Positions 5,255-36,620 of a stretch of 64,000 bases of DNA are shown in pieces; position 1 is the first letter of the stretch, and every line of letters begins with the position of its first letter. The DNA comes from Promethearchaeota archaeon (lineage in GTDB: Archaea; Asgardarchaeota; Hermodarchaeia; Hermodarchaeales; Hermodarchaeaceae). The notes under the pieces were generated by a model, which saw only the letters and a program-made list of their open reading frames with translations, had not been told where the DNA came from and ran no database searches. The stretch spans positions 2,366-66,365 of the forward strand of contig JBHLPI010000003.1 in NCBI GenBank assembly GCA_048939595.1, given 5' to 3'. A program made the position numbers and the translations under genes.

Positions 5255-5404
5255 TTTTCTATCACTGACTCGGTGTTTGCATCTTAGGCTTTAAGGATTT
5301 CCGTTTGCCGTGAGTAGATTTGGGGATTCTGGAAGCAGTTTGGTATCAGGAATCTTTTTACAGGCGCTTGAACTGGTAGGCTAAACACAAACAGGTGAAA
5401 GAAC

Positions 5405-6643
5405 GTGGATGGGTATCTTGTCTTTGGCGTCGGTAAACTCTATTGCATTAACGATCAGCTGTCGGTCATTTCTGAACTAGATTTAGGTCAAACGCCAGAA
5501 GAAATCAGCAATGTATACACTCGAATTCGCCATGGTACCGATGATCCTCGGCTTAGAGAATTCTTCAATACCTTGCAATCAAAGAAGGTGGAGCGCATCT
5601 TTGTTGAATCGCAAGGATTTGCTGAAGAACTTTCAAGATTATATGACGTGCGAGGGCAACTGTATGAGGACGTGCGGTTTTGGCGCCGAGTTCGGCTGGA
5701 TTTTCTTAGCAAAAATATTGCTTCTACGAATGGGGAAATGCTCCATGAGATTGCCGTTGAGGTTTCACGTTTAGCAATTCGTACTGCTTCTGAACAAAGT
5801 GACCAACTAATTATCCAAGCAATGAATTCTTTAGATGATGTCGAAAAAGCTCAAAACTTGATGGTTTCCCGACTTCGTGAATGGTTTGGTTTACACTTTC
5901 CTGAAGCAGCTCATGCGATAGAAAACGGACAATCTCTAGCTCGTATTGTAGCTGAAGGGGGAACGAGGGAGCAGATAAGCAACAAACCTGAATTAGTCCA
6001 ACTTATTTCAGAATCAAGAATAAAGCCAGAATTACTAGAGCAGTCAATGGGAGCGGAGGTTTCTGAACAGGATATGATGATGATTCAGGCATTGGCGAAA
6101 CAGATTCTTGGGCTAAATGATTTCAGAGAACACCTTGAAAAGTACCTTGATGACTCGATGTTAACAGTTGCTCCGAACCTACGTGGATTGATAGGTCCTG
6201 TAATTGGTGCAAGATTAATTGGACTAGCGGGAGGAATTGAAAAGCTGGCCCGTTTTCCTGCAAGCACCATTCAAGTACTTGGGGCTGAACAAGCACTGTT
6301 CCGAGCCTTGAAGACCGGCGCAAAGCCTCCAAAACATGGGGTAATTTTCCAGCACACCCTAATTCACTCAGCGCCTTGGTGGCAACGAGGGAAAATCGCG
6401 CGTATTCTTGCTGGGAAGATCGCTATTGCAGCTCGAATAGATTTGTATTCAGGCCAATATGTAGCAGACGAATTAAAACAAAATGTTCTTTCACGAGTTG
6501 CAGAAGTAAAGCGAAAATATCCTACCGCTCCAAAAAAACCTCCCTCAAAGCCACAGAGACACCACCTGAAACGGAAACGGTATGGAAAACGGACAAAACC
6601 ACATGCCCCGAACAAAAGAAGTAGCAAAACAAAGAGGAAATGA
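5405..6643 (+). CDS. nop5: Nop56/58 (Nop5) C/D box snoRNP core protein
   Basis: NOSIC/Nop domain motifs (AEQALFRALKTGAKPPKHGVIFQH) and a basic KKx C-terminal tail. AGGTGA lies 8 nt upstream of the GTG start. Overlaps fibrillarin by 4 nt. Confidence 0.9.
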   Translation: MDGYLVFGVGKLYCINDQLSVISELDLGQTPEEISNVYTRIRHGTDDPRLREFFNTLQSKKVERIFVESQGFAEELSRLYDVRGQLYEDVRFWRRVRLDFLSKNIASTNGEMLHEIAVEVSRLAIRTASEQSDQLIIQAMNSLDDVEKAQNLMVSRLREWFGLHFPEAAHAIENGQSLARIVAEGGTREQISNKPELVQLISESRIKPELLEQSMGAEVSEQDMMMIQALAKQILGLNDFREHLEKYLDDSMLTVAPNLRGLIGPVIGARLIGLAGGIEKLARFPASTIQVLGAEQALFRALKTGAKPPKHGVIFQHTLIHSAPWWQRGKIARILAGKIAIAARIDLYSGQYVADELKQNVLSRVAEVKRKYPTAPKKPPSKPQRHHLKRKRYGKRTKPHAPNKRSSKTKRK

Positions 6644-15251: not shown

Positions 15252-15818
15252 CTATTGCTCAGCCGCTGACGCTAATTCTGATTGTTCTATTCGAATCTGC
15301 TTAATCATTCTTCGTAGTTGACCTTTCAGTTTGTCAGTATCATATTCGAAGCCAAAATAATCTGCAAACATTTCAGTGGTCCTAAGTTCTTTAGTTCGTC
15401 CCGCTGGATTGGATTCTATGAAACCATGTGATTCCAGCATTTTGATGTGCTTATAACTATGCGAACCGCGATATAGTACAACATTCGATTGGAGAATGGG
15501 TTGGGAGAGGGCGATATAGATGAGCGTTTTCAGTTCACCCAGTGATAGTAATCCCTGTGGAGCTAACTCACCCACCTTTTCACTGAGTTCAGGATCTAAT
15601 TGGAGGACAAACCGCTGGCGAGGAAGTCGAACAATTTCTAAAGCCCCTGATCGATTATCATATTCATCTATTAGCTCTTGGACAGATTCTCGTACCTGCT
15701 TCAAGGTTGGTATTTGTGTTGCCTGTTGGATTTCATGAATGGTGAGAGGTCGCCCTGCAATGTAGAGAGCTGCTTCAACTAATCGAGTTGTTTCATCCAC
15801 TGTTGAATCCCTCCTCAC
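15252..15818 (-). CDS. scpB: segregation and condensation protein B
   Basis: EAALYIAGRPLTIHEIQ motif, tandem winged helices; overlaps scpA. Confidence 0.85.
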   Translation of the reverse strand: MRRDSTVDETTRLVEAALYIAGRPLTIHEIQQATQIPTLKQVRESVQELIDEYDNRSGALEIVRLPRQRFVLQLDPELSEKVGELAPQGLLSLGELKTLIYIALSQPILQSNVVLYRGSHSYKHIKMLESHGFIESNPAGRTKELRTTEMFADYFGFEYDTDKLKGQLRRMIKQIRIEQSELASAAEQ

Positions 15819-16482
15819 TGCTTAGTTTTTGGACTAAAATCATGAGGTCTCCATTTTGGAGAGCCTGTGTGAGGCGAATTTTGCCTTCGCCTAATAAGTA
15901 GAGGAGAGTTAGAAAAACTCGAATAATATCAATATGTGACATCCCATGAACAAAGTCGACAAAAGAGATTGGGTTACTTTCAAGACTTACTTCAAGCAAC
16001 TTTGTGTATAATCCCTTCATTGATTTGGTCAGTTCAACTCGTGATCCATCAAATTGGGGGATCGTTGGGAAAGAATCACTATTTTTTGTTTGCTTTCGAA
16101 ACCGCTTCTTAGGCGGAAAGACAATTTCACGGAGTGCTTCAAGAAATTCTGCTGAGGATGTGGGACGAATATTTTGCCGAAATGGGGGGCGAATAGGAGG
16201 TAAGAAGATATCATCTTCGATTACTTTGATTATTTCTTCTTCCTCTCGGCCAAACTCAAGTAAATATTCAGTTTTTAATCGGAGAAGTATCGCCGCAGAA
16301 AGTAGTGCGCGACCACAAATGCGAAAATCGATGTACTCAGCTGTTAGTAGTCGACCAATGAATCCATTGACTAGTTCGGCTAGGTCGAGCTCCCATGGAC
16401 TAATCTTTTGCAATTCTAAGATATCAGTGAGAACTCGCCATGGTTGATGAAACCAGAATGGTTCAGGGCTACTTTCCGTCAA
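15793..16482 (-). CDS. scpA: segregation and condensation protein A (kleisin)
   Basis: Sits between smc and scpB. N-terminal ..PWELDLAELV.. kleisin motif and a C-terminal winged helix. Confidence 0.8.
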   Translation of the reverse strand: MTESSPEPFWFHQPWRVLTDILELQKISPWELDLAELVNGFIGRLLTAEYIDFRICGRALLSAAILLRLKTEYLLEFGREEEEIIKVIEDDIFLPPIRPPFRQNIRPTSSAEFLEALREIVFPPKKRFRKQTKNSDSFPTIPQFDGSRVELTKSMKGLYTKLLEVSLESNPISFVDFVHGMSHIDIIRVFLTLLYLLGEGKIRLTQALQNGDLMILVQKLSSEEGFNSG

Positions 16483-16566
16483 TGAATTATCTTTCTCCAG
16501 TTTCTTAGCAATTTTGTAGTACTTGATAAATGCGTCCTTATAATCTGATGTATTATCTGCTTTTCA

Positions 16567-19500
16567 CTATGTTTTACTTGTGCCTTCAATCATAAGAAGA
16601 CCTTCTTCAAATTGAACTGAAAATACTTGAGATACCCCATCTACTAGTGCAACACCAAGTATTGTTTTAGCCAGTCGGATTGTAATCTCGTTGTGTGAAA
16701 TAATAAGAAATTGTGAATTTTCAGCAAGATTTGCAATTAATCGCGCAACGCGATCGGCATTATTTGGATCTAAGGCTTCGTCGACTTCATCAAGGAAGTA
16801 GAAAGGAGCCGGTTGATGGAGTTGTAAGGCAAACATAAAGGTTAATGCTGTTAGTGCTTTTTCTCCCCCAGAGAGGGCGTCGAGGTATTGAACACGTTTA
16901 CCTGCGGGACGAATTTTCATTCGCATTCCACCTAAGAACGGATTCTCAGGATTCTCTAATTCGAGCTCTCCCTCACCCTGAGTGAGTTGTTGATAAACGT
17001 CAGTAAAATTCTGTGAAATACTATTAAACGCCGCCATAAACACGCGAAACTTCTCTTCTTCTGCTTTCCGCATTGCGTCTAGAATCGCTTCGCGCTCTTC
17101 ACGTATTCGGGTTTCCTTTTCTAATATCTCATCATAAGCATGGCGAATTTCTTCAAAGCGTTCAACAGCCTTTTGATTGATAAGGCCTAATTGTTCCCTC
17201 TCCTGTTGGAGTTCAGAAATTTGTCTGCGTAAGCTGTGTACCTGGACGGGTTCTAACGGTAGCAACGGAGGTTCTAAACCTTGAGTTTTCTCCTTCTGAG
17301 CATCATAACGTTCCTGCCAGTTTTCTATCCGACCTTCAATTTTTGACTGGTTCATTCGTTCTTCATTGATTTTATCGAATAGTTCGTCGATTGTAATTCC
17401 TAATTGTTGTGTTTCTTTTTCACTTTCCCTGATTCTTTCTTCTATTGAGTGAATTTGTTCATTCAGGTTATTAACCTCAGCTTCGAGTGTTTCTATTTTG
17501 TTCTGGTGCTCTTGGATTTGTTCTTGAGTGGTTGCTAATTCTTTTTCATTCTGTTCTAATTCGGCTTTCGCATTAGAGAATTCTTCAGATAATCGTTTAA
17601 TCTCACTCTGTGAGTAACGAGCTTCGCTAACCTTTTCGGTTAGTTTAAGTTGGGTTTCTTGGAGTTGTGATTCGTAGTCATCTAGCTGAGTCCGGAGCCC
17701 AGTGAGATTTGGATCTAAACTGCTTCTTTCTAGTAACGATAAGCTTTCTTGTAGTTCTTTTCGCTTGTCGATGAGCTCATTGATTTCAGATTGATCTGTT
17801 TGGAATTTATCGATTAAGGATTGGTGAGAGTCTTGTTCATCTTTTAGTGATTCACGCAGTTTGGAAATGCTTTCCTTAAAATCAATGAGTTCTTCTTCTT
17901 GAGCAGTGGCAAGCTCATTTGTTTTGTTAAAGTTCGTTTTCACTTCTTCAAGCTGATGTTGTTTCTGGCTAACCTGACTATCTAATTCACTGATTCTATC
18001 AAGCCATTCCTTGTATTCAGCGGCTATTTTGGTTTGAAGTGCGCGCAATTCTTTGAGCTTCTTTTGTAATTCTGGAATTCTTGTCTCTTCTTCCAAAGTA
18101 AAAGATGAGAGTCCTTTATAGAATCCTCCTGTTAGAGTTCGATTAGGTTCGACGACATCACCATCAATTGTAATCTTACGGACACTAGGAGCTGTGATAT
18201 TCCGTGCTGTTTTCAAATCCTTGACGATAAGCGTGCGGCCAAAGACATAGTCGAATGCAGGACGATATTTTTCATCAAAGGTGAGTAAGTCCATCGCATT
18301 TCCGACAACTCCTTTTTGATCACTTTTTTGTGAATAAGGATTTGTCTTAATTGTATCAAGTGGAATAAAGGTCGCACGTCCTATTCGACTCTTTTTCAAA
18401 TGTTCAATGCATTTTGTAGCGGTTTCTTCAGTATCAACAACGATGAAATCTAACCGGCCACCACCTGCAACCTCAAGTGCAGTAGCATGCTTTGTAGATG
18501 TCTTTCCTAGGCTGCCAAGTGTTCCGTATACACCAGAAATTTTGTTCTCTTTCGCAAACTTCAACGTTGCTTCAGTCGCTGCTTTCCTTGTTAACCCATA
18601 CTTCTTGAATTCTCGAATTGTTTTCAATCGTGTTTGAGCTTCAAGGAGTTCTTCTTTTGAGTCTTGGATTAGCGAATTGAGTTCGTCCTGTTTGTCCAAT
18701 TTTTCTTGCATCGACAATTGAAAGGCGTCTTTTTGGTTTAGCAACTCGGCTACTTCAGATTCTAGATTGTGAATCTGGGTTTCGAGATTTTGGCATTCTG
18801 CTTGTGCTTCGTCTCTTGCATATTCTTGCTCTGGAAGAAGTGCATAGCTGTTTTCAATTTGCGTTTTCAGGTCAGAGACACGCTTTTCGGTGACGTGATT
18901 CAGAGCAGATGTTTCCCCAAGTTCACTTTTCTTAGTCTCAATGACTTGGGTTAACTCTAGTATCTGTTCCCTCAGCGAGAGATATTCTGCATCGGGAGAA
19001 ATAGTTTCTTTAGACAGTTCTGAGAGACGAGTTCGAATAGGGGCGATTTGTGCTTTCAATGACGTCTCTTCAGCTTTTAGTGCCTTAATTTCTTCGTTAA
19101 GTTCTGAATATCGCGTCTGTTCTTCTAAGTGTTTAGAGGAAAGATGGTCAACACTTGCCGATAATAACGCTTTTTCTTTGGTTAGTTTGTCAGAGGTAAG
19201 CAAGAGACCCTTCAGAATTTCACGTGTCCGTGTTTCTTCAAGTTCCTTTCCTCGTTGCTTCTGGTCTATTTCTTTGATTTTCTTTTCATCAACGAGAGCG
19301 TGTTGTTCTAATTCGAGTTTCCGCTCTTTCGCCTCTTTGCGTTGAGTTTCTAATTCTTTGATGGCAGAAGAATAGGTTTCGAATTCTTCTTTCATTGCAT
19401 TCAAGCGTTCTTCAACCCTGGCTAGTTCCGCAAAAACTAGATCTCTTTCGAGTTGTGTTAGATTATCTGTTATTTCTCGCCAGCGGAGGGCATCCTTTCG

Positions 19501-20130
19501 GTCCTTTTCTAATCGAGTGTATTCTAGTCGAATTTCTTCAGTACGAAGTTGTACCATATGCAGGTTTCGATCAACTTTAACTAATTCGCCTTCAATTTGC
19601 TGCTTCTTTTCATCAAAGACAGAAATTCCAGCAACTCCCTCAACAACCTGCCGAATTTCTGTTGGGGTCATTGTGATGACATTGGCTAATTCGTTTTGCA
19701 TTACAATATTATGACCTTCGGGGTGTAATCCAGCGACAGCAATTGTGTCAATCATTTCGGTCCGGGTGACCCGTTTACCCCCTATCCTGTAAGCACTAAT
19801 TCCAGTTTCGTCAACTTCGCGACTAATGGTAACTTCATCAGCATCAATAGGAAAATGCCGATCTGCATTATTAAAGACAAGACTAACTCGAGTGAGTTTA
19901 GCAGGAGAATTACTGGTTCCGCCATTGAATAGTAACGAAGCAAAGTTCTCGGCACGAAGAGATTTGCTACTTAGGCGTCCAAGTACAAAGCAAACAGCGT
20001 CCAGAATATTACTTTTGCCACAACCATTTTCACCAACAATTGCGGTGAATCCCCTACTGAGGTCAATTGTGGTTTTTCGTGAACTGAAGCTCTTGAACCC
20101 TTGAATGGTTATTTGTTGTAAATAAGCCAC
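16567..20130 (-). CDS. smc: chromosome segregation ATPase SMC
   Basis: N-terminal Walker A GENGCGKSN, long coiled coils, hinge, signature LSGGEK and Walker B FYFLDEVDEALD; 1187 aa. Confidence 0.95.
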   Translation of the reverse strand: MAYLQQITIQGFKSFSSRKTTIDLSRGFTAIVGENGCGKSNILDAVCFVLGRLSSKSLRAENFASLLFNGGTSNSPAKLTRVSLVFNNADRHFPIDADEVTISREVDETGISAYRIGGKRVTRTEMIDTIAVAGLHPEGHNIVMQNELANVITMTPTEIRQVVEGVAGISVFDEKKQQIEGELVKVDRNLHMVQLRTEEIRLEYTRLEKDRKDALRWREITDNLTQLERDLVFAELARVEERLNAMKEEFETYSSAIKELETQRKEAKERKLELEQHALVDEKKIKEIDQKQRGKELEETRTREILKGLLLTSDKLTKEKALLSASVDHLSSKHLEEQTRYSELNEEIKALKAEETSLKAQIAPIRTRLSELSKETISPDAEYLSLREQILELTQVIETKKSELGETSALNHVTEKRVSDLKTQIENSYALLPEQEYARDEAQAECQNLETQIHNLESEVAELLNQKDAFQLSMQEKLDKQDELNSLIQDSKEELLEAQTRLKTIREFKKYGLTRKAATEATLKFAKENKISGVYGTLGSLGKTSTKHATALEVAGGGRLDFIVVDTEETATKCIEHLKKSRIGRATFIPLDTIKTNPYSQKSDQKGVVGNAMDLLTFDEKYRPAFDYVFGRTLIVKDLKTARNITAPSVRKITIDGDVVEPNRTLTGGFYKGLSSFTLEEETRIPELQKKLKELRALQTKIAAEYKEWLDRISELDSQVSQKQHQLEEVKTNFNKTNELATAQEEELIDFKESISKLRESLKDEQDSHQSLIDKFQTDQSEINELIDKRKELQESLSLLERSSLDPNLTGLRTQLDDYESQLQETQLKLTEKVSEARYSQSEIKRLSEEFSNAKAELEQNEKELATTQEQIQEHQNKIETLEAEVNNLNEQIHSIEERIRESEKETQQLGITIDELFDKINEERMNQSKIEGRIENWQERYDAQKEKTQGLEPPLLPLEPVQVHSLRRQISELQQEREQLGLINQKAVERFEEIRHAYDEILEKETRIREEREAILDAMRKAEEEKFRVFMAAFNSISQNFTDVYQQLTQGEGELELENPENPFLGGMRMKIRPAGKRVQYLDALSGGEKALTALTFMFALQLHQPAPFYFLDEVDEALDPNNADRVARLIANLAENSQFLIISHNEITIRLAKTILGVALVDGVSQVFSVQFEEGLLMIEGTSKT

Positions 20131-20153
20131 GTGAAAAACGCCTACACTCTTAC

Positions 20154-20160
20154 TTTTATA
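20154..20160 (-). promoter_or_regulatory. TATA-like box upstream of smc
   Basis: TATAAAA on the minus strand, 24-30 nt upstream of the smc GTG start. This would give a leaderless or near-leaderless mRNA. Confidence 0.4.
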
Positions 20161-20269
20161 GTTTGGTCAAACGCCCCTGAGAGAGGCATTTCCCATAGAA
20201 AAAGGTCTCGAACCTACTTCTGAATGCGAAATGCGTGAGTATTTATTGAAATCTGTTGCACGTCGGGAT

Positions 20270-20650
20270 TTAGCTGGTACCAATCTTTTCAACCGCAGAG
20301 CGAAGACTCCGAATAATTAAACCTAGACTGGGAGCGGCATCTTTTCCGGCGATGGCAATGACTAGGGTTTTTGACGCAGTGACGGCCACGGTATAACCTT
20401 TGTCTGTTTCCAGATACATCGATTGTACTGGACCTTGATCGACAGCTTTGCTTACAGTTTTTGTTTCCTTCAAGAGAGTAGTGACGCTTGAAGTAATTGC
20501 ACTATGGTCCATATCTCGCAGAGTTTGTCCAGCAATTACCTTACCTGTTTGAGAGGCTGCAATAAGCCCTTCAAGTTCGGGTATAGTGTCCATTATTTCT
20601 GCAAGAATCTGTTCAACTTCTTTCTTTCCGAGCATGAAAGCCACACCCAT
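20270..20650 (-). CDS. Roadblock/LC7/MglB-family protein (RB1)
   Basis: EQILAEIMDTIPELEGLIAASQTGKVIA...VTTLLKETKTVSKAV..GPVQSMYLETDKGYTVAV...TLVIAIAGKDAAPSLGLI; typical Roadblock secondary-structure pattern. Confidence 0.75.
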   Translation of the reverse strand: MGVAFMLGKKEVEQILAEIMDTIPELEGLIAASQTGKVIAGQTLRDMDHSAITSSVTTLLKETKTVSKAVDQGPVQSMYLETDKGYTVAVTASKTLVIAIAGKDAAPSLGLIIRSLRSAVEKIGTS

Positions 20651-20781
20651 CGCCAGAGAATCTTGGCAATATGGTTGCGATAAAAAGAATTGGGTTTCCT
20701 TGGTTTAAAAACTGTCCGTCAGAAAGACAGAAAGAGTAGATTTTTTCAAAACTTCGCCATTATCTCCGAACAAGAGGGAAC

Positions 20782-20789
20782 TTTTATAA
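20782..20789 (+). promoter_or_regulatory. TATA-like box upstream of RB2
   Basis: TTTTATAA about 50 nt upstream of the ATG at 20836, with GGAG 4 nt before the ATG. Confidence 0.35.
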
Positions 20790-20835
20790 CTTCAATAAGA
20801 GACCACTAGTCAGTGGCTAGAGAGTGTGGAGTACA

Positions 20836-21123
20836 ATGATTGGCGGAAAAGCACTAAAAGACTCACTCAAACGCCTCGGCGCTCATGAAGGTGTTCGGGG
20901 TGTGATCATCACAAATATGGAAGGTCTACCAATCAGCTCCAATTTGAACGCAGAAAAAACTGAAGTCATCGCAGCACTGGTTACTTCACTTGTAGGCAAA
21001 GCCAAACGTGTTGTAGATGAACTAGGAGAGGGCGGTATGAATTTTCTCACCATCTCAACACCTCGAGGAGAAGTCATGGTCGCCCCCGAAGAAGACTACA
21101 TTCTCATCGTCATGCGAGGATGA
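20836..21123 (+). CDS. Roadblock/LC7 protein, dynein-LC7/LAMTOR2-like (RB2)
   Basis: [27 protein letters not shown]...[15 protein letters not shown]...[26 protein letters not shown]. It is collinear with my recollection of eukaryotic DYNLRB. The ATG at 20836 is preferred because GGAG precedes it; the track starts at the GTG at 20824. Confidence 0.8.
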
Positions 21124-21203
21124 GGACCCCACGTTCTCCACACAAGAATTAAAAGTCATCTCCCTAAGATAAGCTCGGCTAGCCCCATGGAAAGGGATGA
21201 ACC

Positions 21204-21674
21204 GTGTCCATAACCGTACGACAATTTGATGAAATCCTCTCTGATGTCATCAAATCTGAACCAGGAATCAAAAAAACAATTCTGGTCGACCGAACAGGAT
21301 TAACTATAGCCCACGTTTCCAAATTCTCATACTACCCTGTTGACGTGGACGGCATTGGTGCAATTGCTAGTGCTGTTTTTTGTGCAAGTGAAGAACAGGG
21401 AAAGAGCTTGGATGTAGGTGATTTGACAATCGTGACATCGGAGTTTGGTGATGGTAAGATCTTTGCAGCTGGTGCAGGAAAAGGTGTTTTGTGTGTGATT
21501 ACCGATAAGGAAGTTAATATCGGTATGATACGCCTAACAATGATGAAAGCAGCAGCTGAACTTGCAAAGGTACTTGACGAGTTTATGGCCGAAAAACCCG
21601 CAGTGGCAGCTGGAAAGACAGACGCCGAGCGGGAAGAGCTTAAAGCCGCCTTAGGAGAACTCGAGAAGGGTTAG
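21204..21674 (+). CDS. Roadblock/LC7-family protein with charged C-terminal extension (RB3)
   Basis: FDEILSDVIKSEPGIKKTILVDRTGLTIAHV...IGAIASAVF...LTIVTSEFGDGKIFAAGAGKGVLCVITDKEVNIGMI, plus a helical acidic tail. Confidence 0.7.
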   Translation: MSITVRQFDEILSDVIKSEPGIKKTILVDRTGLTIAHVSKFSYYPVDVDGIGAIASAVFCASEEQGKSLDVGDLTIVTSEFGDGKIFAAGAGKGVLCVITDKEVNIGMIRLTMMKAAAELAKVLDEFMAEKPAVAAGKTDAEREELKAALGELEKG

Positions 21675-21721
21675 TGGGGACGGGATAAGAGCAACGCGAA
21701 CATAGAAGGAGCCGTCCTACT

Positions 21722-22309
21722 TTGAAGAAAGACACACAGGGAAGAATACATTTTAAAATCGTCTTCTGGGGACCCTCGTTATCGGGCAAGACAACAGCGC
21801 TTCGATGGATATATGATAACATTGAAGGGTTAAATAAAGGTGGCTTCACGTCGGTTGCAGATCATACAGGAAGAACTCTCTTTTTTGATTATACACCAAT
21901 GCAGGCAACAGCGCAGGTAGTTTTTGATGTTTACACAGTTGCTGGACAGCGACGTCATCGGGGACAGCGAAAGGTCATCTTAAGCGGTGTTGATGGCATT
22001 ATTTTTGTTGCAGATTCATCTCCGGATCAGATGGAAGCAAACATCGAAAGTATGGCAGAGTTGCGTTCCTTCGTTAGTGAAGATCTTGGGCACTCCATAA
22101 GTCTTGTAGTTATGTTGAATAAGCAGGATTTACCCAGTGCAATGAAAAAGAATGTCATGCTTGCGAAGCTGGGATTGGGAAACGCGCCAAACTTTACCAC
22201 TTGCGCCTTAACAGGTGAAAATGTTAAACGCGCGTTTCGCCAAGTAACTCGCGATATCTTGATGTACCATTTGTATCCTAAGACATCTGCAAAAGCATCC
22301 GCGAGCTAG
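21722..22309 (+). CDS. MglA-type small GTPase
   Basis: P-loop GPSLSGKT, GRTLFFDY (switch I with Arg), YTVAGQ (switch II), VDGIIFVADS, MEANIES and NKQD. AAGGAG lies 10 nt upstream of the TTG start. Confidence 0.8.
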   Translation: MKKDTQGRIHFKIVFWGPSLSGKTTALRWIYDNIEGLNKGGFTSVADHTGRTLFFDYTPMQATAQVVFDVYTVAGQRRHRGQRKVILSGVDGIIFVADSSPDQMEANIESMAELRSFVSEDLGHSISLVVMLNKQDLPSAMKKNVMLAKLGLGNAPNFTTCALTGENVKRAFRQVTRDILMYHLYPKTSAKASAS

Positions 22310-22316
22310 AATAACA

Positions 22317-22700
22317 TTGATGATCCCGAGTTCACCAGAAATTGAGAAAATTTTGGAGAGTCTAACAGACTCGGTTGAGGAGATTGAAGCGGCGGTTGTC
22401 GTTGGTGTCGATGGTTTACCTATAGCAGCAAAACTTCCAGAAGGATATGATGAGACATTGCTAGCTGCGATGAGCGCCGCTTTACTTACAGTTGGTGAAC
22501 GGGCAGCATCTGATTTAGGAAAAGGTGCATTACATCAAGTCTTTGCCCAAGGTGGAACGGGAGCAGTAATTATGGTTGCGGCGGGATCGGATTCAGTTTT
22601 AATGGTTAGCACAAACACTGAATCACTAGCAGGTCTGGGTCTAGTCTTTATCAACATGGAACGTGCCGCAAAAAAAATTGCTCAAAAATTAGACCGATAA
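22317..22700 (+). CDS. Roadblock/LC7/MglB-family protein (RB4)
   Basis: IEKILESLTDSVEEIEAAVVVGVDGLPIAAKL...AAMSAALLTVGERAASDLGKGALHQVFAQGGTGAVIMVAAG; starts 7 nt after the GTPase stop. Confidence 0.75.
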   Translation: MMIPSSPEIEKILESLTDSVEEIEAAVVVGVDGLPIAAKLPEGYDETLLAAMSAALLTVGERAASDLGKGALHQVFAQGGTGAVIMVAAGSDSVLMVSTNTESLAGLGLVFINMERAAKKIAQKLDR

Positions 22701-22768: not shown

Positions 22769-23536
22769 TTGACAAACCTTGTAGGACCAATCTATCATCT
22801 ATATTCATGGTATCTTTGGCGCCAAATTAAAGACAACCCGATGCCAACCCATGTAGGGATAATTTTAGATGGCAATAGACGATTCGCCAAAGAACAAAAC
22901 CAAGACAGTAGTTTTGGGCACACCGCTGGGGCCCAACGAATTGATGAAGTCCTTGACTGGTGTTTTGAAGCAGGCGTAAAGGTTGTTACAATTTACGTAT
23001 TTTCAACTGAGAATTTTTCACGAAAGGAAGAAGAAGTTCAGCATATCATGGATTTAGCACAACAACGATTTGAAACTGTAGCACGATCAGAGGTTGTACA
23101 TCGCCATAAGGTCCGCGTTCGGGCAATAGGTCAGTTAACACTCCTTCCTTCTTCGGTACTAGATGCAATTCAAGAAGCAGAATCAGCAACTGCCAGTTAC
23201 GATAAATTTCAACTGAATGTGGCAATTAGTTATGGTGGACGAACAGAGATAGTCGATGCAGTGAAGAGTATCGCGGAAAAAGTTCGAAGTGGATCTTTAC
23301 ACCCATCAGAAATTACAGATTCCACGATAGAGAAACATCTCTATACCGCAGGGATAGCCGATCCAGAATTAATCATTCGAACATCTGGAGAAGAAAGACT
23401 CTCCGGGTTCTTATTATGGCAATCAGCGTATTCTGAGCTATATTTCGCGGATGTATATTGGCCTGATATCAGGAAAATAGATTTTTGGCGTGCCCTACGT
23501 ACTTATCAGCATAGAGACCGAAGATTCGGTAATTAG
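22769..23536 (+). CDS. uppS: cis-prenyltransferase (undecaprenyl/dehydrodolichyl diphosphate synthase family)
   Basis: HVGIILDGNRRFAK, IRTSGEERLSGFLLWQSAYSELYF motifs. Confidence 0.9.
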   Translation: MTNLVGPIYHLYSWYLWRQIKDNPMPTHVGIILDGNRRFAKEQNQDSSFGHTAGAQRIDEVLDWCFEAGVKVVTIYVFSTENFSRKEEEVQHIMDLAQQRFETVARSEVVHRHKVRVRAIGQLTLLPSSVLDAIQEAESATASYDKFQLNVAISYGGRTEIVDAVKSIAEKVRSGSLHPSEITDSTIEKHLYTAGIADPELIIRTSGEERLSGFLLWQSAYSELYFADVYWPDIRKIDFWRALRTYQHRDRRFGN

Positions 23537-23547
23537 GAGAATACCAA

Positions 23548-23967
23548 ATGAAGCGAAAAAAGAATAACTCATTGGCTGTGTTAGTTGATAGTAGTTTTTC
23601 ATCAGAACTTCCAGAGACTTTAGTCAAACTTCGACCACTATTAAATGAGCTTGGCGACATAAAGGTAGGGAAAGTTATAATTTTACAAAAGCAGGCTGCG
23701 GAATATTCAAAGCTAATAGCCCACGAAGGCTTCATTCCAGTTATTGTTCATGATGATCTCGATATTCATTTCGCCTTAGAGGCAATGGAGTTTATTTATA
23801 ACGAAAAAATCGACACTATTGCCCTCGCGACGGATAATGAAAAACTTCTTCCTCTATTAAGCCGTGCCCGGGAACTTGGAAAAGAAGTGATACTGCTCTT
23901 TTCAGCCGATAGAGTAAATTCAGGATTACAGAATGCCGCAGATGTAGTGCTCTCAATTGCCAATTGA
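23548..23967 (+). CDS. NYN/LabA-like (DUF88) domain protein
   Basis: LAVLVD... DIHFALEAMEF... IDTIALATDNEKLLPLLSRARELGKEVILL pattern of the PIN-like NYN fold. Some acidic positions look substituted. Confidence 0.5.
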   Translation: MKRKKNNSLAVLVDSSFSSELPETLVKLRPLLNELGDIKVGKVIILQKQAAEYSKLIAHEGFIPVIVHDDLDIHFALEAMEFIYNEKIDTIALATDNEKLLPLLSRARELGKEVILLFSADRVNSGLQNAADVVLSIAN

Positions 23968-23972
23968 GTTTC

Positions 23973-24842
23973 CTACAACAATCCCCGTTTCATAAGTAAA
24001 GAAAATTCTTCCATGGTCAGCCGTTCTCCCCTTTTATGTTTCTCGAGAGCAACGGAGGCTTTCTCCTCAAGACGTTCTTCCATGGCCTGAATCTTCTCAA
24101 CGCGTTGTCTTACGCGAAATTCACCCAATTCTTTTCGTAGTCGGCTATTCTCCTGTCTAGCCTCAATATATCGGCGATGTGTCTCATCAGCTTCACGGCG
24201 TGTCTCCAAATACTGGCGATGCGCTTCGTCAGCCCGTTTTCGAAGTGCATCAACTTCTGCATAAGCCTCAATCATAGCTTGGTTCTCTTCTTGAGAAAGG
24301 CGAGCAAATTCAAGAACTGAATTATGATGAGCATTCATCAGTAGTCTAAGATCCTCAATTTCGGTTCGCGCCTTTGCGCTTTCTTTGCGCTTGGCTACTG
24401 CCTCTTCAGCAACTTTCAATTCAGCTTCGAGTTCAGCAATTTGATCTATGATTTCGCGTTCTCGTTTTAAATCTAAAACCTGTGTTTGCAAAGACCAATC
24501 TAGTTCACGGATTTTTCGACGAAGGACATGGGAAGGAGCAGAAGTTTTTTTCTGAATTTCTTCTGCGTCTTCTTCATTTCCTTGTTTTTCATCAACTTTG
24601 TCTTTTAGTTTCGAATATATTTCATCCCGTTTGACTTTGAATTCAGCTACCTTTTGGTTATACTCATCACGTTTTTCACGGTGATCGCGAGCCTTAGAGA
24701 GCCATTCTGCAACTTGTGCATTGAGCTTATCCCTTTCTTTAACTAGCTTTTGAGCCTCGGTATTCAGCTCATCTCTTTTCTCGCGCAACGTAGCAGCTAG
24801 CCGGTTTATTTCGGCTAGCTGAAGAACAGCGTCCTCCGACAC
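23973..24842 (-). CDS. archaeal coiled-coil protein (COG1340-like)
   Basis: Almost entirely heptad-like Glu/Lys/Arg-rich helices; 289 aa, the size class of the conserved archaeal coiled-coil family. Confidence 0.55.
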   Translation of the reverse strand: MSEDAVLQLAEINRLAATLREKRDELNTEAQKLVKERDKLNAQVAEWLSKARDHREKRDEYNQKVAEFKVKRDEIYSKLKDKVDEKQGNEEDAEEIQKKTSAPSHVLRRKIRELDWSLQTQVLDLKREREIIDQIAELEAELKVAEEAVAKRKESAKARTEIEDLRLLMNAHHNSVLEFARLSQEENQAMIEAYAEVDALRKRADEAHRQYLETRREADETHRRYIEARQENSRLRKELGEFRVRQRVEKIQAMEERLEEKASVALEKHKRGERLTMEEFSLLMKRGLL

Positions 24843-35271: not shown

Positions 35272-35787
35272 ATGAGTATGCAACAACGCCAGTATGTTCT
35301 CAAAGTCTGTGTCGTCGGTGATGGTGCTGTAGGAAAAACCAGCCTTATCATCCGCTATACCGAAGGTCACTTTCGAGAATCTTACATCATGACAGTTGGA
35401 ACATCTTTCGCAGTGAAGGAGTTAACTTTTGGTGACACTTTGGTCCGTTTACAACTTTGGGATCTGGCGGGGCAACCACATTTTAGTTCGGTTCGTCCAG
35501 TTTTTTATCGTGGGGCTGCAGGTATTATTTTGGTATATGATGTAACGCGTCGTTCGACATTTGATGCGATTCCGGCATGGTATACTGAGGTTTCACAGGT
35601 TACCGGGAATGTGCCAACTGTGCTGCTGGCGAACAAAGTGGATTTGGTAGACCAAAGCCAAACAACAACAGAGGAAGGTATGGCATACGCTCAACAACTT
35701 GGGTGGGGGTACTTTGAGACTAGTGCGAAGGAAGGTAAAGGTGTTACCGATGCCTTTCGGCAAATCGCCTGGTCATGTATTAGCTAG
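35272..35787 (+). CDS. Rab/Ras-like small GTPase
   Basis: G1 GDGAVGKTS, switch I YIMTVG, G3 WDLAGQ, G4 NKVD, G5 ETSAKEG; 171 aa. Confidence 0.85.
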   Translation: MSMQQRQYVLKVCVVGDGAVGKTSLIIRYTEGHFRESYIMTVGTSFAVKELTFGDTLVRLQLWDLAGQPHFSSVRPVFYRGAAGIILVYDVTRRSTFDAIPAWYTEVSQVTGNVPTVLLANKVDLVDQSQTTTEEGMAYAQQLGWGYFETSAKEGKGVTDAFRQIAWSCIS

Positions 35788-36620
35788 CCTTCGTCTGATT
35801 CCGAATTCATTATGAAATCAGTTAATTTGTGTGAGCTAGTCTGATGCAGATAGATTGCGCATTGTTGTGGTTCAATTTTGCGATATTCCAGACCAAGTTG
35901 TTCTAGGAGTGCAAAAGTGCCTTTAGTAAGACTTGGAGCGACAAGTATTCCTCGGATGCCTGCATTTTCTTCTCCCTGAAAGCTTTTGAGATAACCATGA
36001 AGTTGGTGCACTGCTTCGCTATCTGCTCGTCGGCGCTTTACCTCGATTATCACTAAATGTTCATCACTATCGCGAGCAAATATGTCAATGAACCCAGGCG
36101 CGACTTGTCGTTCCCGAACAATGGTTCGGAGACCAGGCTCAATGAGTTCAGGGTGGGCACTAAGAACCTTTTGCATTTCGTCTTCAGTTAGATACATGGT
36201 GAATTCACCAGGATCATCTAGCAGGCTAGCGCTAAGCATTGTGAGAGAGGAAAATTCAATACGAACAGTTTCACGGGGTTTAGCACGATTAGCATAAAGA
36301 ATGAGTGTATCTTCCTCGCAGGTGACTTTCATTGTTGCGCCAGGTGGCTGCCAATTCAATGGTTCTACCCCACTTTCCTTATGAACTAGTATCGTACCAT
36401 CTCGTTTTAAGAGAACGAGACGTTCTCCTTCAGTGAGAATTGAACGGGCTCGTCCCTGATACTCAACAAAACAGACGCCAATAATTTGTATGAAACGTTT
36501 TTGCGAAATAGCATCTTGGATTAGGATGCTGGCTTCTTCAAGAGATGGAGATTTGAGTAGCCATATCTTGTCATCAATAGAGAACTGGGGTTTAGACAAA
36601 TTCTTTCCCATCGAAGTCAT
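35784..36620 (-). CDS. nucS: endonuclease NucS/EndoMS
   Basis: N-terminal CFVEYQGRARS...KRDGTILVH...PLNWQP, and a C-terminal RecB-like GFIDIFARD...LVIIEVKRRRA...QLHGY. Confidence 0.8.
   Translation of the reverse strand: MTSMGKNLSKPQFSIDDKIWLLKSPSLEEASILIQDAISQKRFIQIIGVCFVEYQGRARSILTEGERLVLLKRDGTILVHKESGVEPLNWQPPGATMKVTCEEDTLILYANRAKPRETVRIEFSSLTMLSASLLDDPGEFTMYLTEDEMQKVLSAHPELIEPGLRTIVRERQVAPGFIDIFARDSDEHLVIIEVKRRRADSEAVHQLHGYLKSFQGEENAGIRGILVAPSLTKGTFALLEQLGLEYRKIEPQQCAIYLHQTSSHKLTDFIMNSESDEG

Follow-up and report, generated by a model that had tools for sequence, protein, structure and literature searches.

Four Roadblock/LC7 families encoded around one MglA-type GTPase in Asgard archaea: a candidate expanded MglA/MglB switch

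The locus considered here raises the question of what a single MglA-type GTPase would do with four Roadblock/LC7 proteins encoded around it. In the 64-kb stretch of DNA that was analyzed (hereafter, the window), Roadblock matches among the open reading frames (ORFs) were confined to four genes, designated RblA to RblD (A to D), which are clustered with a gene for a small GTPase (G). A first-pass annotation had read this arrangement as a possible Ragulator-like scaffold. Its five ORFs were recovered at the same coordinates and with the same gaps, and its assignment of four of them to the Roadblock/LC7 group was borne out by scores above the Pfam Robl_LC7 cutoff of 23 bits (A, 29.4; B, 71.2; C, 40.9; and D, 57.1 bits).

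The locus and its five proteins

The A gene is transcribed divergently from B, C, G, and D, from which it is separated by 185 nt (counted to the ATG of B at position 20836); the gaps on the plus strand are 80 nt (B to C), 47 nt (C to G), and 7 nt (G to D), and these four genes are presumably cotranscribed. The A-B spacer (20651..20835) is a putative bidirectional promoter region, as judged from its letters: it contains the TATA-like string TTTTATAA on the plus strand (20782-20789, about 47 nt 5' of ATG 20836), as well as TTTAAAAA (20706-20713) and ATAAAAAG (about 20683-20690), whose reverse complements form T/A boxes 5' of A on the minus strand, in agreement with the boxes noted earlier on both strands. 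Leaving aside overlapping ORFs of 57 to 69 aa in antisense orientation or alternate frames, the ORF list shows no genes other than these five between the flanking SMC and UppS genes. Transmembrane-like segments are absent from all five proteins, and no LAMTOR1-like gene was found between SMC and UppS, which agrees with the earlier remark that the cluster encodes no membrane anchor.

G (21722..22309, plus strand) is an MglA-family (MglA1-type) small GTPase of 195 aa, the lone GTPase copy in the cluster, with a single domain and no Rag-type C-terminal Roadblock domain. Searches of the PDB with phmmer returned MglA at E values of roughly 1e-35 to 1e-32 (Thermus, 4.7e-35; Myxococcus, 1e-32) versus 2e-11 for the best Arf match, which makes MglA the nearest Ras superfamily group to G by sequence and upholds the first-pass assignment. 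The motifs GPSLSGKT, GRT, TVAGQ, and NKQD begin at residues 17, 50, 72, and 133, respectively. In the G3 motif, a Thr occupies the Asp position, and TVAGQ (residues 72 to 76) aligns with TVPGQ of the Thermus and Myxococcus MglA proteins; T72, A74, G75, and Q76 are invariant among 19 Asgard orthologs, in which R51 is nearly invariant. This switch I Arg (GRTLFFDY) aligns with that of ERTLFFDF in Thermus and DRTLFFDF in Myxococcus, and Gln76 aligns with the MglA catalytic Gln, the catalytic identity of both residues having been established for MglA (PMC10933270, PMC3199381). The P-loop Lys and the switch I Thr are 29 residues apart, versus 19 in HRAS and 18 in ARF1, and the G1-G2 stretch aligns to Thermus MglA without gaps; an insertion at this point relative to Ras and Arf is a feature of bacterial MglA (PMC4316618). 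The mean column identity of G is 63%. The calculated pI of G is 9.6 (basic) and those of C and D are 4.8 and 4.5 (acidic), complementary charges that we counted for the switch reading set out below. MglA hydrolyzes GTP under stimulation by a Roadblock (MglB) dimer and undergoes a screw movement of its β2 strand upon GTP binding.

C (21204..21674, plus strand; 156 aa) is an MglB-like long Roadblock protein. It matches Thermus MglB by sequence (3.1e-06), its family profile has Myxococcus MglB as the best PDB match, and its AF2 model retrieves Thermus MglB (3t1r; E = 4.9e-10) as the best Foldseek match, followed by MK-D1 Roadblock3 and LAMTOR2. It also exceeds the cutoff of 25 bits for Pfam MAPKK1_Int (LAMTOR3), at 29.6 bits. 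The model has the topology α-β-β-α-β-β-β-α (H6-18, E22-29, E34-39, H48-64, E76-81, E84-91, E94-101, and H106-129), followed by a low-confidence linker (130-139) and a helix predicted at 140-155. The latter is the acidic helical tail that had been ascribed to one paralog; its motif, EELKAALxELEK, follows a variable, Pro-rich linker and is itself kept in different phyla. No other gene of the cluster is as conserved as C (67% mean column identity), in which the α2 region is invariant. Against NCBIfam NF052242 (MglB, Thermus type), C scores 29.2 bits, with a cutoff of 200, a shortfall that we counted against the switch reading; by sequence, C is thus MglB-like but outside the MglB equivalog family. 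MglB works as a homodimer that contacts a single MglA and serves as the GTPase-activating protein (GAP) for it, and the MglB Ct helix contacts MglA in Myxococcus. C is predicted to be the cognate GAP or regulator of G.

B (20836..21123, plus strand; 95 aa) is a short Roadblock protein of the RBLC7 type that lacks a C-terminal helix, stopping right after the last strand. Its start is most likely ATG 20836 rather than that of a longer ORF at 20824, because GGAG lies immediately upstream and the PDB alignment begins at residue 5 of the longer ORF. It aligns over its full length to DYNLRB1/2 and Drosophila roadblock (E, 6e-17 to 1e-14), and its PDB matches are 7f8f (9e-30), Drosophila roadblock 3l7h (5.9e-17), and human DYNLRB1 (3.8e-16); a LAMTOR5 match of 24.6 bits lies below the cutoff of 27. 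The 7f8f structure, probably the Odin-RBLC7 of Tran et al. (2024), is matched at 106 bits, within the 84 to 119 bits seen between B orthologs of different phyla (non-Kari lineages). By sequence, B is the cluster member closest to the eukaryotic dynein light chain roadblock. DYNLRB/LC7 is a dynein motor subunit that binds the intermediate chain, and dynein is not known in archaea. B is similar to this family in sequence, which does not make it a dynein subunit.

The remaining long Roadblock proteins, A (20270..20650, minus strand; 126 aa) and D (22317..22700, plus strand; 127 aa), are related to MK-D1 Roadblock2 and Roadblock3/Thor-RB. The start of A is probably ATG 20635, because the resulting 121 aa fits the lengths of its orthologs, and that of D is probably ATG 22320. 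The AF2 model of A (pLDDT, 91.5; pTM, 0.86) has the topology α1-β1-β2-α2-β3-β4-β5-α3, and its best Foldseek match is the MK-D1 Roadblock2 homodimer (9jq8; 37% identity, TM, 0.80 to 0.87). D matches Thor-RB (7f8m, 1.2e-15), MK-D1 Roadblock3 (9jue, 2.1e-15), and CvnB5 (4.9e-10), the values with its family profile being 9.3e-30, 5.5e-31, and 2.1e-16, respectively.

The first-pass view that the paralogs are not recent duplicates holds. Their pairwise identities are 20 to 29%, and the members of each family score 100 to 295 bits with their own hidden Markov model (HMM) and at most 53 bits with the next (A, 129 to 177 versus at most 44; B, 133 to 156 in most lineages and 100 to 122 in Kari-type loci versus at most 36). 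They are by sequence four distinct orthologous families, anciently diverged, among which the family HMMs place A and D mutually nearest.

Gene order across Asgard lineages

The check on gene order proposed with the first-pass annotation gave a clear outcome, with the arrangement strongly kept in relatives. Of 80 species-level loci, 29 (plus three cut by contig ends) have the full order, A(-)|B C G D(+); they come from Hermod, Thor, Baldr, Borr, and Freyr lineages and one Hod genome, and Atabey loci have B C G D. Since all Roadblock matches of the window lie in the cluster and the arrangement is found again in dozens of genomes, it is not due to chance. Reduced arrangements are C-G in Odin, where it is the sole Roadblock link that G retains, C-G..D in Hodarchaeales, B-G in Heimdallarchaeum-type loci, and B-G..D in Kari-type loci; C-G is among the most persistent adjacencies. 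That G keeps at least one Roadblock gene in varying combinations after rearrangement argues for separate functional links, G-B, G-C, and G-D. The median junctions are 18 nt from B to C and 13 nt from G to D, with minima of 0 and -4, the G-to-D gap not exceeding 17 nt in 30 of 48 loci. We counted these tight junctions for the switch reading. On the other side of the ledger, we entered the insertions of up to 2.3 kb between C and G in Thor, the occurrence of C alone in Hel, and that of G without a Roadblock neighbor in some Heimdall loci. In Thorarchaeota, a Sec23/24-like gene is located within the cluster, so that the earlier statement that the cluster encodes no effector stands for the window studied but not for that lineage.

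The flanks bear on how this conservation is to be read. Downstream of A, and codirectional with it, lie SMC (16567..20130, minus strand; from the ORF list), ScpA (15793-16482; Pfam), and ScpB (15252-15818; Pfam); SMC and A are neighbors in 28 loci, at a median distance of 191 nt (139 nt here). In Baldr (L010) and Hod (L047) loci, A is still found with B-C-G-D, divergently paired with B, and SMC is not nearby, a persistence that we counted for the switch reading. Beyond D lies a UppS-type cis-prenyltransferase gene (22769..23536, plus strand; Pfam Prenyltransf, 280 bits), a neighbor whose membership in the system is unproven; with a TTATATAT box about 35 nt 5' of its start, it is probably a transcription unit separate from D. 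D-UppS adjacency is found in 38 loci and is held in Kari-type loci even where D is apart from G. Since the unrelated flanking SMC, UppS, NYN, and DUF7121 genes are also syntenic across several lineages, the conservation of gene order may in part be inherited synteny rather than selection for coexpression. These syntenic flanks, and the many other Asgard small GTPases that A to D could serve, were also counted against the switch reading.

A proposed expanded switch and the alternatives

The reading that we favor, with moderate confidence, is a conserved Asgard MglA/MglB switch, consisting of G and a C dimer, that was expanded with three more Roadblock proteins, B, D, and A. We infer the following scheme for the GAP activity of C, the dimer composition, the stacking, and the cellular output. 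G, which has its own catalytic Arg and Gln, would, as bacterial MglA does, hydrolyze GTP efficiently solely with a Roadblock dimer docked on its switch regions, C being the likeliest dimeric GAP, with its C-terminal helix probably exerting allosteric control in the manner of the MglB Ct helix. B, D, and A would most likely form further Roadblock dimers whose binding to G or the C dimer depends on the nucleotide state; as platforms or adaptors, they would link the switch to its location or to effectors. Such an arrangement would recall the Myxococcus MglC homodimer stacked on MglB and, at a greater distance, the layered Roadblock subunits of Rag-Ragulator.

The scaffold proposed by the first-pass annotation, in which A to D form one obligate, hetero-oligomeric, Ragulator-like assembly (e.g., two heterodimers) that docks G and acts as a whole as its guanine nucleotide exchange factor or GAP, is unlikely, although its premise of four anciently conserved Roadblock folds adjoining one GTPase in a conserved locus stood. 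Three long and one short Roadblock proteins do recall the long LAMTOR2/3 and short LAMTOR4/5 pairs, with C exceeding the LAMTOR3 threshold and matching LAMTOR2 in structure and B having a subthreshold LAMTOR5 match, but the cluster encodes no LAMTOR1-like wrapping or anchoring subunit and G is not of the Rag type with a C-terminal Roadblock domain. A and D are mutually nearest, as is often so for heterodimer partners; on the other hand, all solved relatives, namely, MglB, MK-D1 Roadblock2 and Roadblock3, Thor-RB, MK-D1-RB, and 7f8f (PMC10933270; PDB matches), are homodimers, a point that is not conclusive since each was expressed alone. The tight B-C and G-D junctions would fit stoichiometric coexpression, but the cluster splits in several lineages, and in those of Odin, Hod, and Heimdall G is left beside a single Roadblock gene or a pair of them, which would not be expected if all four subunits were obligate. 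Among the listed homologs (C, 139 to 173 aa; G, 184 to 208 aa), no fusion of one Roadblock protein to another or to a GTPase was seen either.

We regard as likewise improbable a plain MglA/MglB pair of G and C, with A, B, and D serving other GTPases or unrelated roles and being present through regional synteny. It draws on the persistence of C-G (above all in Odin), the conserved order of the unrelated SMC, UppS, NYN, DUF7121, and ATP-grasp neighbors, the dozens of small GTPases and Roadblock genes per Asgard genome (10.1101/2020.10.19.343400), and the general location of Roadblock and GTPase genes outside operons in MK-D1 (Tran et al., PMC10933270). However, after rearrangement B stays with G in Heimdallarchaeum- and Kari-type loci and D does so in Hod-type loci while the unrelated flanks change, the genes of the B-C and G-D pairs lie very close together or overlap, and the A|B divergent pair outlives the loss of SMC. 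Moreover, that all four Roadblock genes of a 64-kb window should lie side by side is very improbable in the absence of selection.

A bolder extension, which we consider quite unlikely, is that an archaeal prototype of the multi-Roadblock GTPase platforms of eukaryotes survives in this cluster, with G on stacked dimers, an output at membranes or coats, and recruitment of the Sec23/24-like protein in Thorarchaeota. B would then correspond directly, on the archaeal side, to the short Roadblock proteins of the dynein/LAMTOR4-5 type, and C, D, and A would be LAMTOR2/3-like; an MglA-like, rather than Arf-like, GTPase would be the native partner of the Asgard Sec23/24 homolog. Finally, it is highly doubtful that A belongs functionally to the SMC-ScpA-ScpB (condensin) unit that it heads, outside the GTPase module, for in spite of their shared strand, the 139-nt A-SMC gap, and the repeated adjacency, A remains beside B without a nearby SMC in the Baldr locus and one Hod genome, the documented partners of the Roadblock family to which A belongs are NTPase regulators, and we know of no Roadblock-SMC link.

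Comparison with known systems

The MglA-MglB(-MglC) systems share with the cluster a GTPase with a TxxGQ G3 motif, an intrinsic switch I Arg, a catalytic Gln, and the G1-G2 insertion, as well as a Roadblock protein to which C is nearest in both sequence and predicted structure, with a C-terminal helix behind a flexible linker. They differ in encoding one or two Roadblock families rather than four together, one of which is here of the short dynein-LC7 type; in addition, RomR, RomX, and RomY genes are not apparent here, and C lies far under the MglB equivalog threshold. To our knowledge, the Asgard host has no gliding or type IV pilus polarity system. The earlier premise of one MglB dimer as the control on bacterial MglA is outdated: in Myxococcus, an MglC Roadblock homodimer stacks on MglB through a contact controlled by MglA-GTP (PMC10329633), and RomY is used in addition to these stacked homodimers (PMC10329633, PMC9481161). 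The stacking provides a precedent for more than one Roadblock protein around MglA. A catalog of prokaryotic MglA/MglB loci records 1:2 coupling at most (PMC4316618), and our literature searches found no earlier description of a four-Roadblock MglA cluster.

In the actinobacterial conservon (CvnA-D/Mfp), the Roadblock protein CvnB is encoded beside the MglA-family GTPase CvnD, and CvnB5 is the nearest non-Asgard structure to the D family by its profile. There, one Roadblock gene accompanies each GTPase, in contrast to four here, and neither the histidine kinase CvnA nor the DUF742 protein CvnC was found in or beside the cluster. B shares its small size and the lack of a C-terminal helix with DYNLRB/LC7 (E, about 1e-16) and 7f8f but is encoded in an MglA-type cluster, a putative operon, of an archaeal host. 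This setting fits the proposal that NTPase regulation is the ancestral Roadblock/LC7 role (Koonin and Aravind [2000], as cited in PMC10933270); the genomic context of an RBLC7-type gene beside MglA was not reported by Tran et al. (PMC10933270). The LAMTOR1-like/Rab-like GTPase/DENN operon of most Asgard archaea is likewise a neighborhood of Roadblock superfamily and small-GTPase genes (Liu et al., 10.1101/2020.10.19.343400), differing in its Rab-like GTPase, DENN partner, and single Roadblock superfamily gene. The same study, which does not mention an MglA/four-Roadblock cluster, lists three Roadblock/longin and two small-GTPase families among the Asgard-specific core genes; some families of the present cluster may be among them.

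The Ragulator-Rag system also has long and short Roadblock-fold subunits around small GTPases. In it, LAMTOR1-5 associate with RagA/B-RagC/D, and two Roadblock heterodimers are formed by the long LAMTOR2/3 and the short LAMTOR4/5. The resemblance extends to the LAMTOR3 score of C, the superposition of its model on LAMTOR2, and the weak LAMTOR5 match of B. It differs in that G is one MglA-type, single-domain gene instead of a heterodimeric GTPase pair with C-terminal Roadblock domains, the solved relatives of the Roadblock proteins are homodimers, and the lipidated wrapping subunit of the LAMTOR1 type has no gene in the cluster. Set beside these systems, the cluster, conserved in most Asgard lineages, is a testable candidate for an early, eukaryote-like multi-Roadblock GTPase platform.

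The five genes and their families

The interval 20270-22700 holds five adjacent genes, as the first-pass annotation had proposed and as the ORF list bears out: RblA (20270-20650, minus strand; 126 aa), RblB (20824 or 20836 to 21123, plus; 95 aa), RblC (21204-21674, plus; 156 aa), the MglA-type GTPase G (21722-22309, plus; 195 aa), and RblD (22317-22700, plus; 127 aa). The intergenic distances it gave also hold, namely, 185 nt between RblA and RblB (from the ATG at 20836), followed by 80, 47, and 7 nt, as does its placement of all four small proteins in Roadblock/LC7: searches with the Pfam Robl_LC7 profile (gathering score, 23 bits) scored RblA, RblB, RblC, and RblD at 29.4, 71.2, 40.9, and 57.1 bits, respectively, and recovered only these four among the ORFs of the window. 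A GGAG just upstream, TTTTATAA at 20782-20789, and a PDB alignment that leaves out the first four residues of the longer ORF favor the ATG at 20836 over 20824 as the start of RblB; RblD and RblA probably start at the ATGs at 22320 and 20635, respectively. A TTATATAT box about 35 nt ahead of the gene following RblD suggests that this gene has its own promoter, an assignment made, like every promoter statement here, from reading the sequence.

The four paralogs are strongly diverged, again as first noted (pairwise identity, 20 to 29%), and the nearest characterized relative differs for each of them. RblC is a long Roadblock protein with a C-terminal helix that is nearest to bacterial MglB and more weakly related to LAMTOR2/3. 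A single-sequence search recovered Thermus MglB (3.1e-06), the best match of the family profile is Myxococcus MglB, and the protein also exceeds the Pfam threshold for LAMTOR3 (MAPKK1_Int). Its AlphaFold2 model has the full long-Roadblock topology, with a disordered linker (residues 130-139) leading to a separate C-terminal helix (residues 140-155), and its best structural matches with Foldseek are Thermus MglB, MK-D1 Roadblock3, and LAMTOR2. RblB is a short version without the last Roadblock helix; it matches 7f8f (9e-30), which is probably Odin-RBLC7 of Tran et al., and the eukaryotic dynein light chain roadblock proteins (6e-17 to 1e-14), to which it is the nearest member of the cluster, along with a subthreshold Pfam match to LAMTOR5. 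RblD and RblA are long Roadblock proteins. The RblD family profile recovered MK-D1 Roadblock3 (9jue; 5.5e-31), Thor-RB (7f8m; 9.3e-30), and the actinobacterial conservon protein CvnB5 (2.1e-16), and RblA, which was modeled with high confidence (pLDDT, 91.5), best matches the MK-D1 Roadblock2 homodimer (9jq8; 37% identical; TM score, 0.80 to 0.87), the MK-D1 Roadblock2 and Roadblock3 identities being those of the Foldseek descriptions. The homolog search with RblA, which needed shared 5-mers, returned only close relatives of at least 56% identity from Hermod-like genomes. Among the related structures, 7YH1 traces to Tran et al. (PMC10933270), and a literature search by PDB code traced no paper for 9JUE, 9JQ8, 7F8M, or 7F8F.

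With the hidden Markov model of its own family, each Roadblock ortholog scores 100 to 295 bits, and with that of the next family no more than 53 bits, implying that the four families had separated by the time the lineages concerned last shared an ancestor. Mean column identity is highest in the cluster for RblC (67%), followed by G (63%), RblB (53%), RblA (49%), and RblD (47%). All named database homologs of RblC are from Asgard archaea except for one labeled "Deferrimicrobium," which is probably misbinned. In one Hermod-type genome, RblC is present as two ORFs, 5284-5604 and 5655-5954 (L006:5284-5954; coordinates of this and the other loci are local), and this split reflects a frameshift, pseudogenization, or misassembly.

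The identification of G as an MglA-type GTPase was upheld: against PDB sequences it recovers Thermus MglA (4.7e-35) and Myxococcus MglA (~1e-32), versus 2e-11 for the best Arf. Its G3 motif is TVAGQ, with a Thr in the position where other GTPases carry an Asp; in switch I, the Arg of GRTLFFDY occupies the aligned position of the intrinsic arginine finger; a catalytic Gln is present; and 29 residues separate the P-loop from switch I, versus 18 to 19 in Arf and Ras, i.e., about ten extra. These hallmark residues are invariant or nearly so in 19 orthologs from genomes labeled Hermod, Freyr, Jord, Thor, Heimdall, Hod, Baldr, Odin, and Kari. G is basic (pI 9.6), and no transmembrane-like segment or lipidation motif was seen in its 195-aa sequence.

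A paralogous MglA-like family (L076 to L080; e.g., L078:5980-6600), 44 to 48% identical to G and with the same TVAGQ and RTLFFD motifs, occurs on Hel-labeled and unlabeled archaeal contigs; the Roadblock family models detected no Roadblock neighbors of its genes. One of its contigs (L077) and an RblC homolog (P0136) are assigned to the bacterium "Candidatus Deferrimicrobium," apparently through misbinning, and a locus labeled Odinarchaeota (L007) encodes a G that is 95% identical to that of the window. The first-pass annotation had also mentioned Rab-like and longin-like genes. The former exists as a 171-aa Ras-family GTPase (35272-35787, plus; Pfam Ras, 172.9 bits) that lies 13 kb from the cluster, has no adjoining Roadblock gene, and is convergent with a NucS endonuclease gene (35784-36620, minus); the latter was not identified among the window ORFs scanned.

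Gene order and neighbors across Asgard archaea

We collected 80 G-anchored loci, taking a single genome for each species, and classified their ORFs with family models built from those loci, such that a gene missing from a locus is not necessarily missing from the genome. The first-pass annotation had proposed checking the gene order in relatives, and the coencoded set recurs across most Asgard lineages. The full order, RblA (minus) followed by RblB, RblC, G, and RblD (plus), is present in 29 of the 80 loci, with a further 3 cut by contig ends, and spans Hermod, Thor, Baldr, Borr, Freyr-type, and one Hod genome. RblB-RblC-G-RblD is found in 8 loci (5 Thor and 3 Atabey type) and RblC-G-RblD in 10, comprising 8 from Hodarchaeales, with a YhbY-like gene between G and RblD, and 2 from Thor that are truncated at contig ends. 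Heimdallarchaeum-type genomes have RblB-G (12 loci), whereas Kari-type genomes have RblB, G, UppS (a cis-prenyltransferase gene), and RblD in partly rearranged form (4 loci). G lacks a Roadblock neighbor in 11 loci (some Heimdall and the five paralogous MglA-like loci), and single-locus or truncated forms account for the other 3 (L017, L052, and L059). On additional contigs, we found just the RblC-G pair in Odin, RblC alone in Hel, G and RblD on a contig labeled just Promethearchaeota, and the full Thor-type order, for which precomputed Pfam annotation gave independent confirmation. The RblB-RblC gap (median, 18 nt; minimum, 0) and the G-RblD gap (median, 13 nt; minimum, -4) are short; the RblC-G gap has a median of 164 nt and is ≤47 nt in 20 of 51 loci. 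In Thorarchaeota, this last spacer is a hot spot for variable insertions reaching 2.3 kb, such as a 529-aa beta-helix-like secreted protein (L013:3779-5368, plus) and a TetR-like regulator with a methyltransferase (L022:3887-5453), while the other two junctions stay tight.

Part of this conservation may be inherited gene order, as unrelated neighbors are likewise syntenic: SMC upstream (adjacent to RblA in 28 loci) and UppS, a NYN-domain gene, and a DUF7121 coiled-coil gene downstream. Three observations argue for a real functional linkage: where the flanks have been replaced by rearrangement, G yet retains RblB, or RblC, or RblC and RblD beside it; the RblB-RblC and G-RblD junctions are very tight; and RblA is still divergently paired with RblB in Baldr and one Hod genome, at loci with no SMC close by.

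The neighbors themselves show several recurrent arrangements. In the window, RblA heads a codirectional minus-strand series (15252-20650) with SMC (16567-20130), ScpA (15793-16482), and ScpB (15252-15818). After UppS, the NYN-domain gene (window 23548-23967, plus) and the DUF7121 gene (window 23973-24842, minus) follow in Hermod and Atabey loci (the window, L020, L048, and L050), and a DUF7121 homolog lies about 2 kb upstream of RblB-G in Heimdallarchaeum (L065:2537-3592, minus), placing this protein near G in three distant lineages. In Kari-type loci (L057:7294-8655, L058:5573-6881, and L075:8848-10089), RblD directly precedes UppS even where it has parted from G; thus, the two form a conserved pair in their own right. 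A conserved coiled-coil protein of 405 to 443 aa, without a match in Pfam or NCBIfam, adjoins the RblB and G genes in Heimdallarchaeum- and Kari-type loci, often directly upstream of RblB on the same strand (L065:4193-5458, L057:4044-5375, and L075:5600-6844, plus; L060:4149-5372 and L064:4188-5402, minus), and may serve as a partner or effector specific to these lineages. In Heimdall loci where G lacks a Roadblock neighbor, the gene ahead of it encodes a conserved protein of about 500 aa that combines zinc-ribbon motifs at the N terminus with a weak match to bacterial PH (L040:4330-5844, plus; also L042 and L073). Farther upstream on the opposite strand, five such loci (L037, L040, L041, L043, and L045) encode a 586-aa Rab-like GTPase with a long acidic tail (L040:2310-4070, minus).

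In all 24 Thor loci covering the interval between RblA (minus) and RblB (plus), a gene for a Sec23/24-like protein of about 543 aa is inserted, codirectional with RblB-RblC-G-RblD (L013:1070-2701, plus; L012:2896-4530; L022:1078-2706; L085:2834-4519; and 20 further loci). It matches the Pfam domains Sec23_trunk (48.7 bits, above threshold), Sec23_BS (beta-sandwich; 30.4 bits), and zf-Sec23_Sec24 (18.3 bits); no such homolog was recovered with Pfam among the ORFs of the Hermod window. The linkage is weak evidence, since it represents one evolutionary event across the Thor loci, and suggests the MglA-like GTPase as a possible native partner for the Thor Sec23/24 homolog. Asgard Sec23-like proteins have been tested against an Arf-like GTPase only, with weak, nucleotide-independent binding (PMC11914678), and we found no mention of the linkage to the Roadblock/MglA cluster in that study. 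The insertion suggests a testable native GTPase partner for this coat protein homolog.

A proposed MglA/MglB-like switch and its relation to known systems

The catalytic Arg and Gln both come from MglA itself, which the MglB Roadblock homodimer activates (PMC3199381); the C-terminal helix of MglB contributes a further, allosteric layer of control (PMC6785124, PMC13408092). Myxococcus also has MglC, a second Roadblock homodimer that stacks on MglB in a contact broken by MglA-GTP, an arrangement likened by those who described it to the Roadblock layers of Rag/Ragulator (PMC10329633). The premise of the first-pass annotation that a single MglB dimer controls MglA is therefore outdated, given the work on MglB, MglC, and RomY and loci with MglA and MglB in a 1:2 ratio (PMC4316618). 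Beyond the observed folds, MglA hallmarks, and conservation, we infer the activity, dimer composition, and output of the cluster by analogy with Myxococcus MglA/MglB/MglC, leaning on balance toward an MglA/MglB-like switch of G and an RblC dimer that is extended by RblB, RblD, and RblA dimers. The RblC dimer would act as the GAP or regulator of G; the RblB, RblD, and RblA dimers would bind G or RblC according to the nucleotide state and may thus connect the G switch to a location or to effectors.

Roadblock domains pair generically, which would leave predictions from linker-fused chains with poor specificity. The first-pass annotation had read the four Roadblock proteins as a possible Ragulator-like hetero-oligomeric scaffold. 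This is a less likely reading, and what speaks for it is resemblance: the combination of three long Roadblocks with a short one, the LAMTOR2/3-like and LAMTOR5-like signals, and RblA and RblD being mutually nearest families. However, the solved relatives are all homodimers (though each was produced on its own), G does not belong to the Rag GTPases, the cluster has no LAMTOR1-like subunit, and several lineages have just one or two Roadblock genes beside G.

The component families of the proposed MglA/MglB-like switch are not new. Earlier studies describe Asgard MglA1-type GTPases and many Roadblock families (10.1101/2024.02.28.582541; 10.1101/2020.10.19.343400) and count three Roadblock/longin and two GTPase families among the Asgard-specific core genes (10.1101/2020.10.19.343400). 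Asgard Roadblock structures have been published and treated as isolated homodimers (PMC10933270), with further ones deposited, and a 2026 paper modeled one Thor MglA/MglB pair (PMC13408092). Outside Klinger et al. 2016 and the supplementary tables of Liu et al. 2021, we found no description of the conserved five-gene cluster. For MK-D1, Tran et al. state that GTPase and Roadblock genes do not generally share operons and that genome layout was no help in matching GTPases to regulators (PMC10933270). Contrary to that picture, gene layout here pairs one MglA1-type GTPase with four defined Roadblock partners, offering experimentalists a concrete five-protein set.

Eukaryotic membranes are organized by small GTPases docked on Roadblock/longin platforms, such as Rag-Ragulator, TRAPP, and Mon1-Ccz1, and it is on the origin of these multisubunit platforms that the cluster may bear. 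We present it as a candidate intermediate, with the bacterial MglA/MglB(/MglC) switch on one side and the layered Roadblock scaffolds of eukaryotes on the other.
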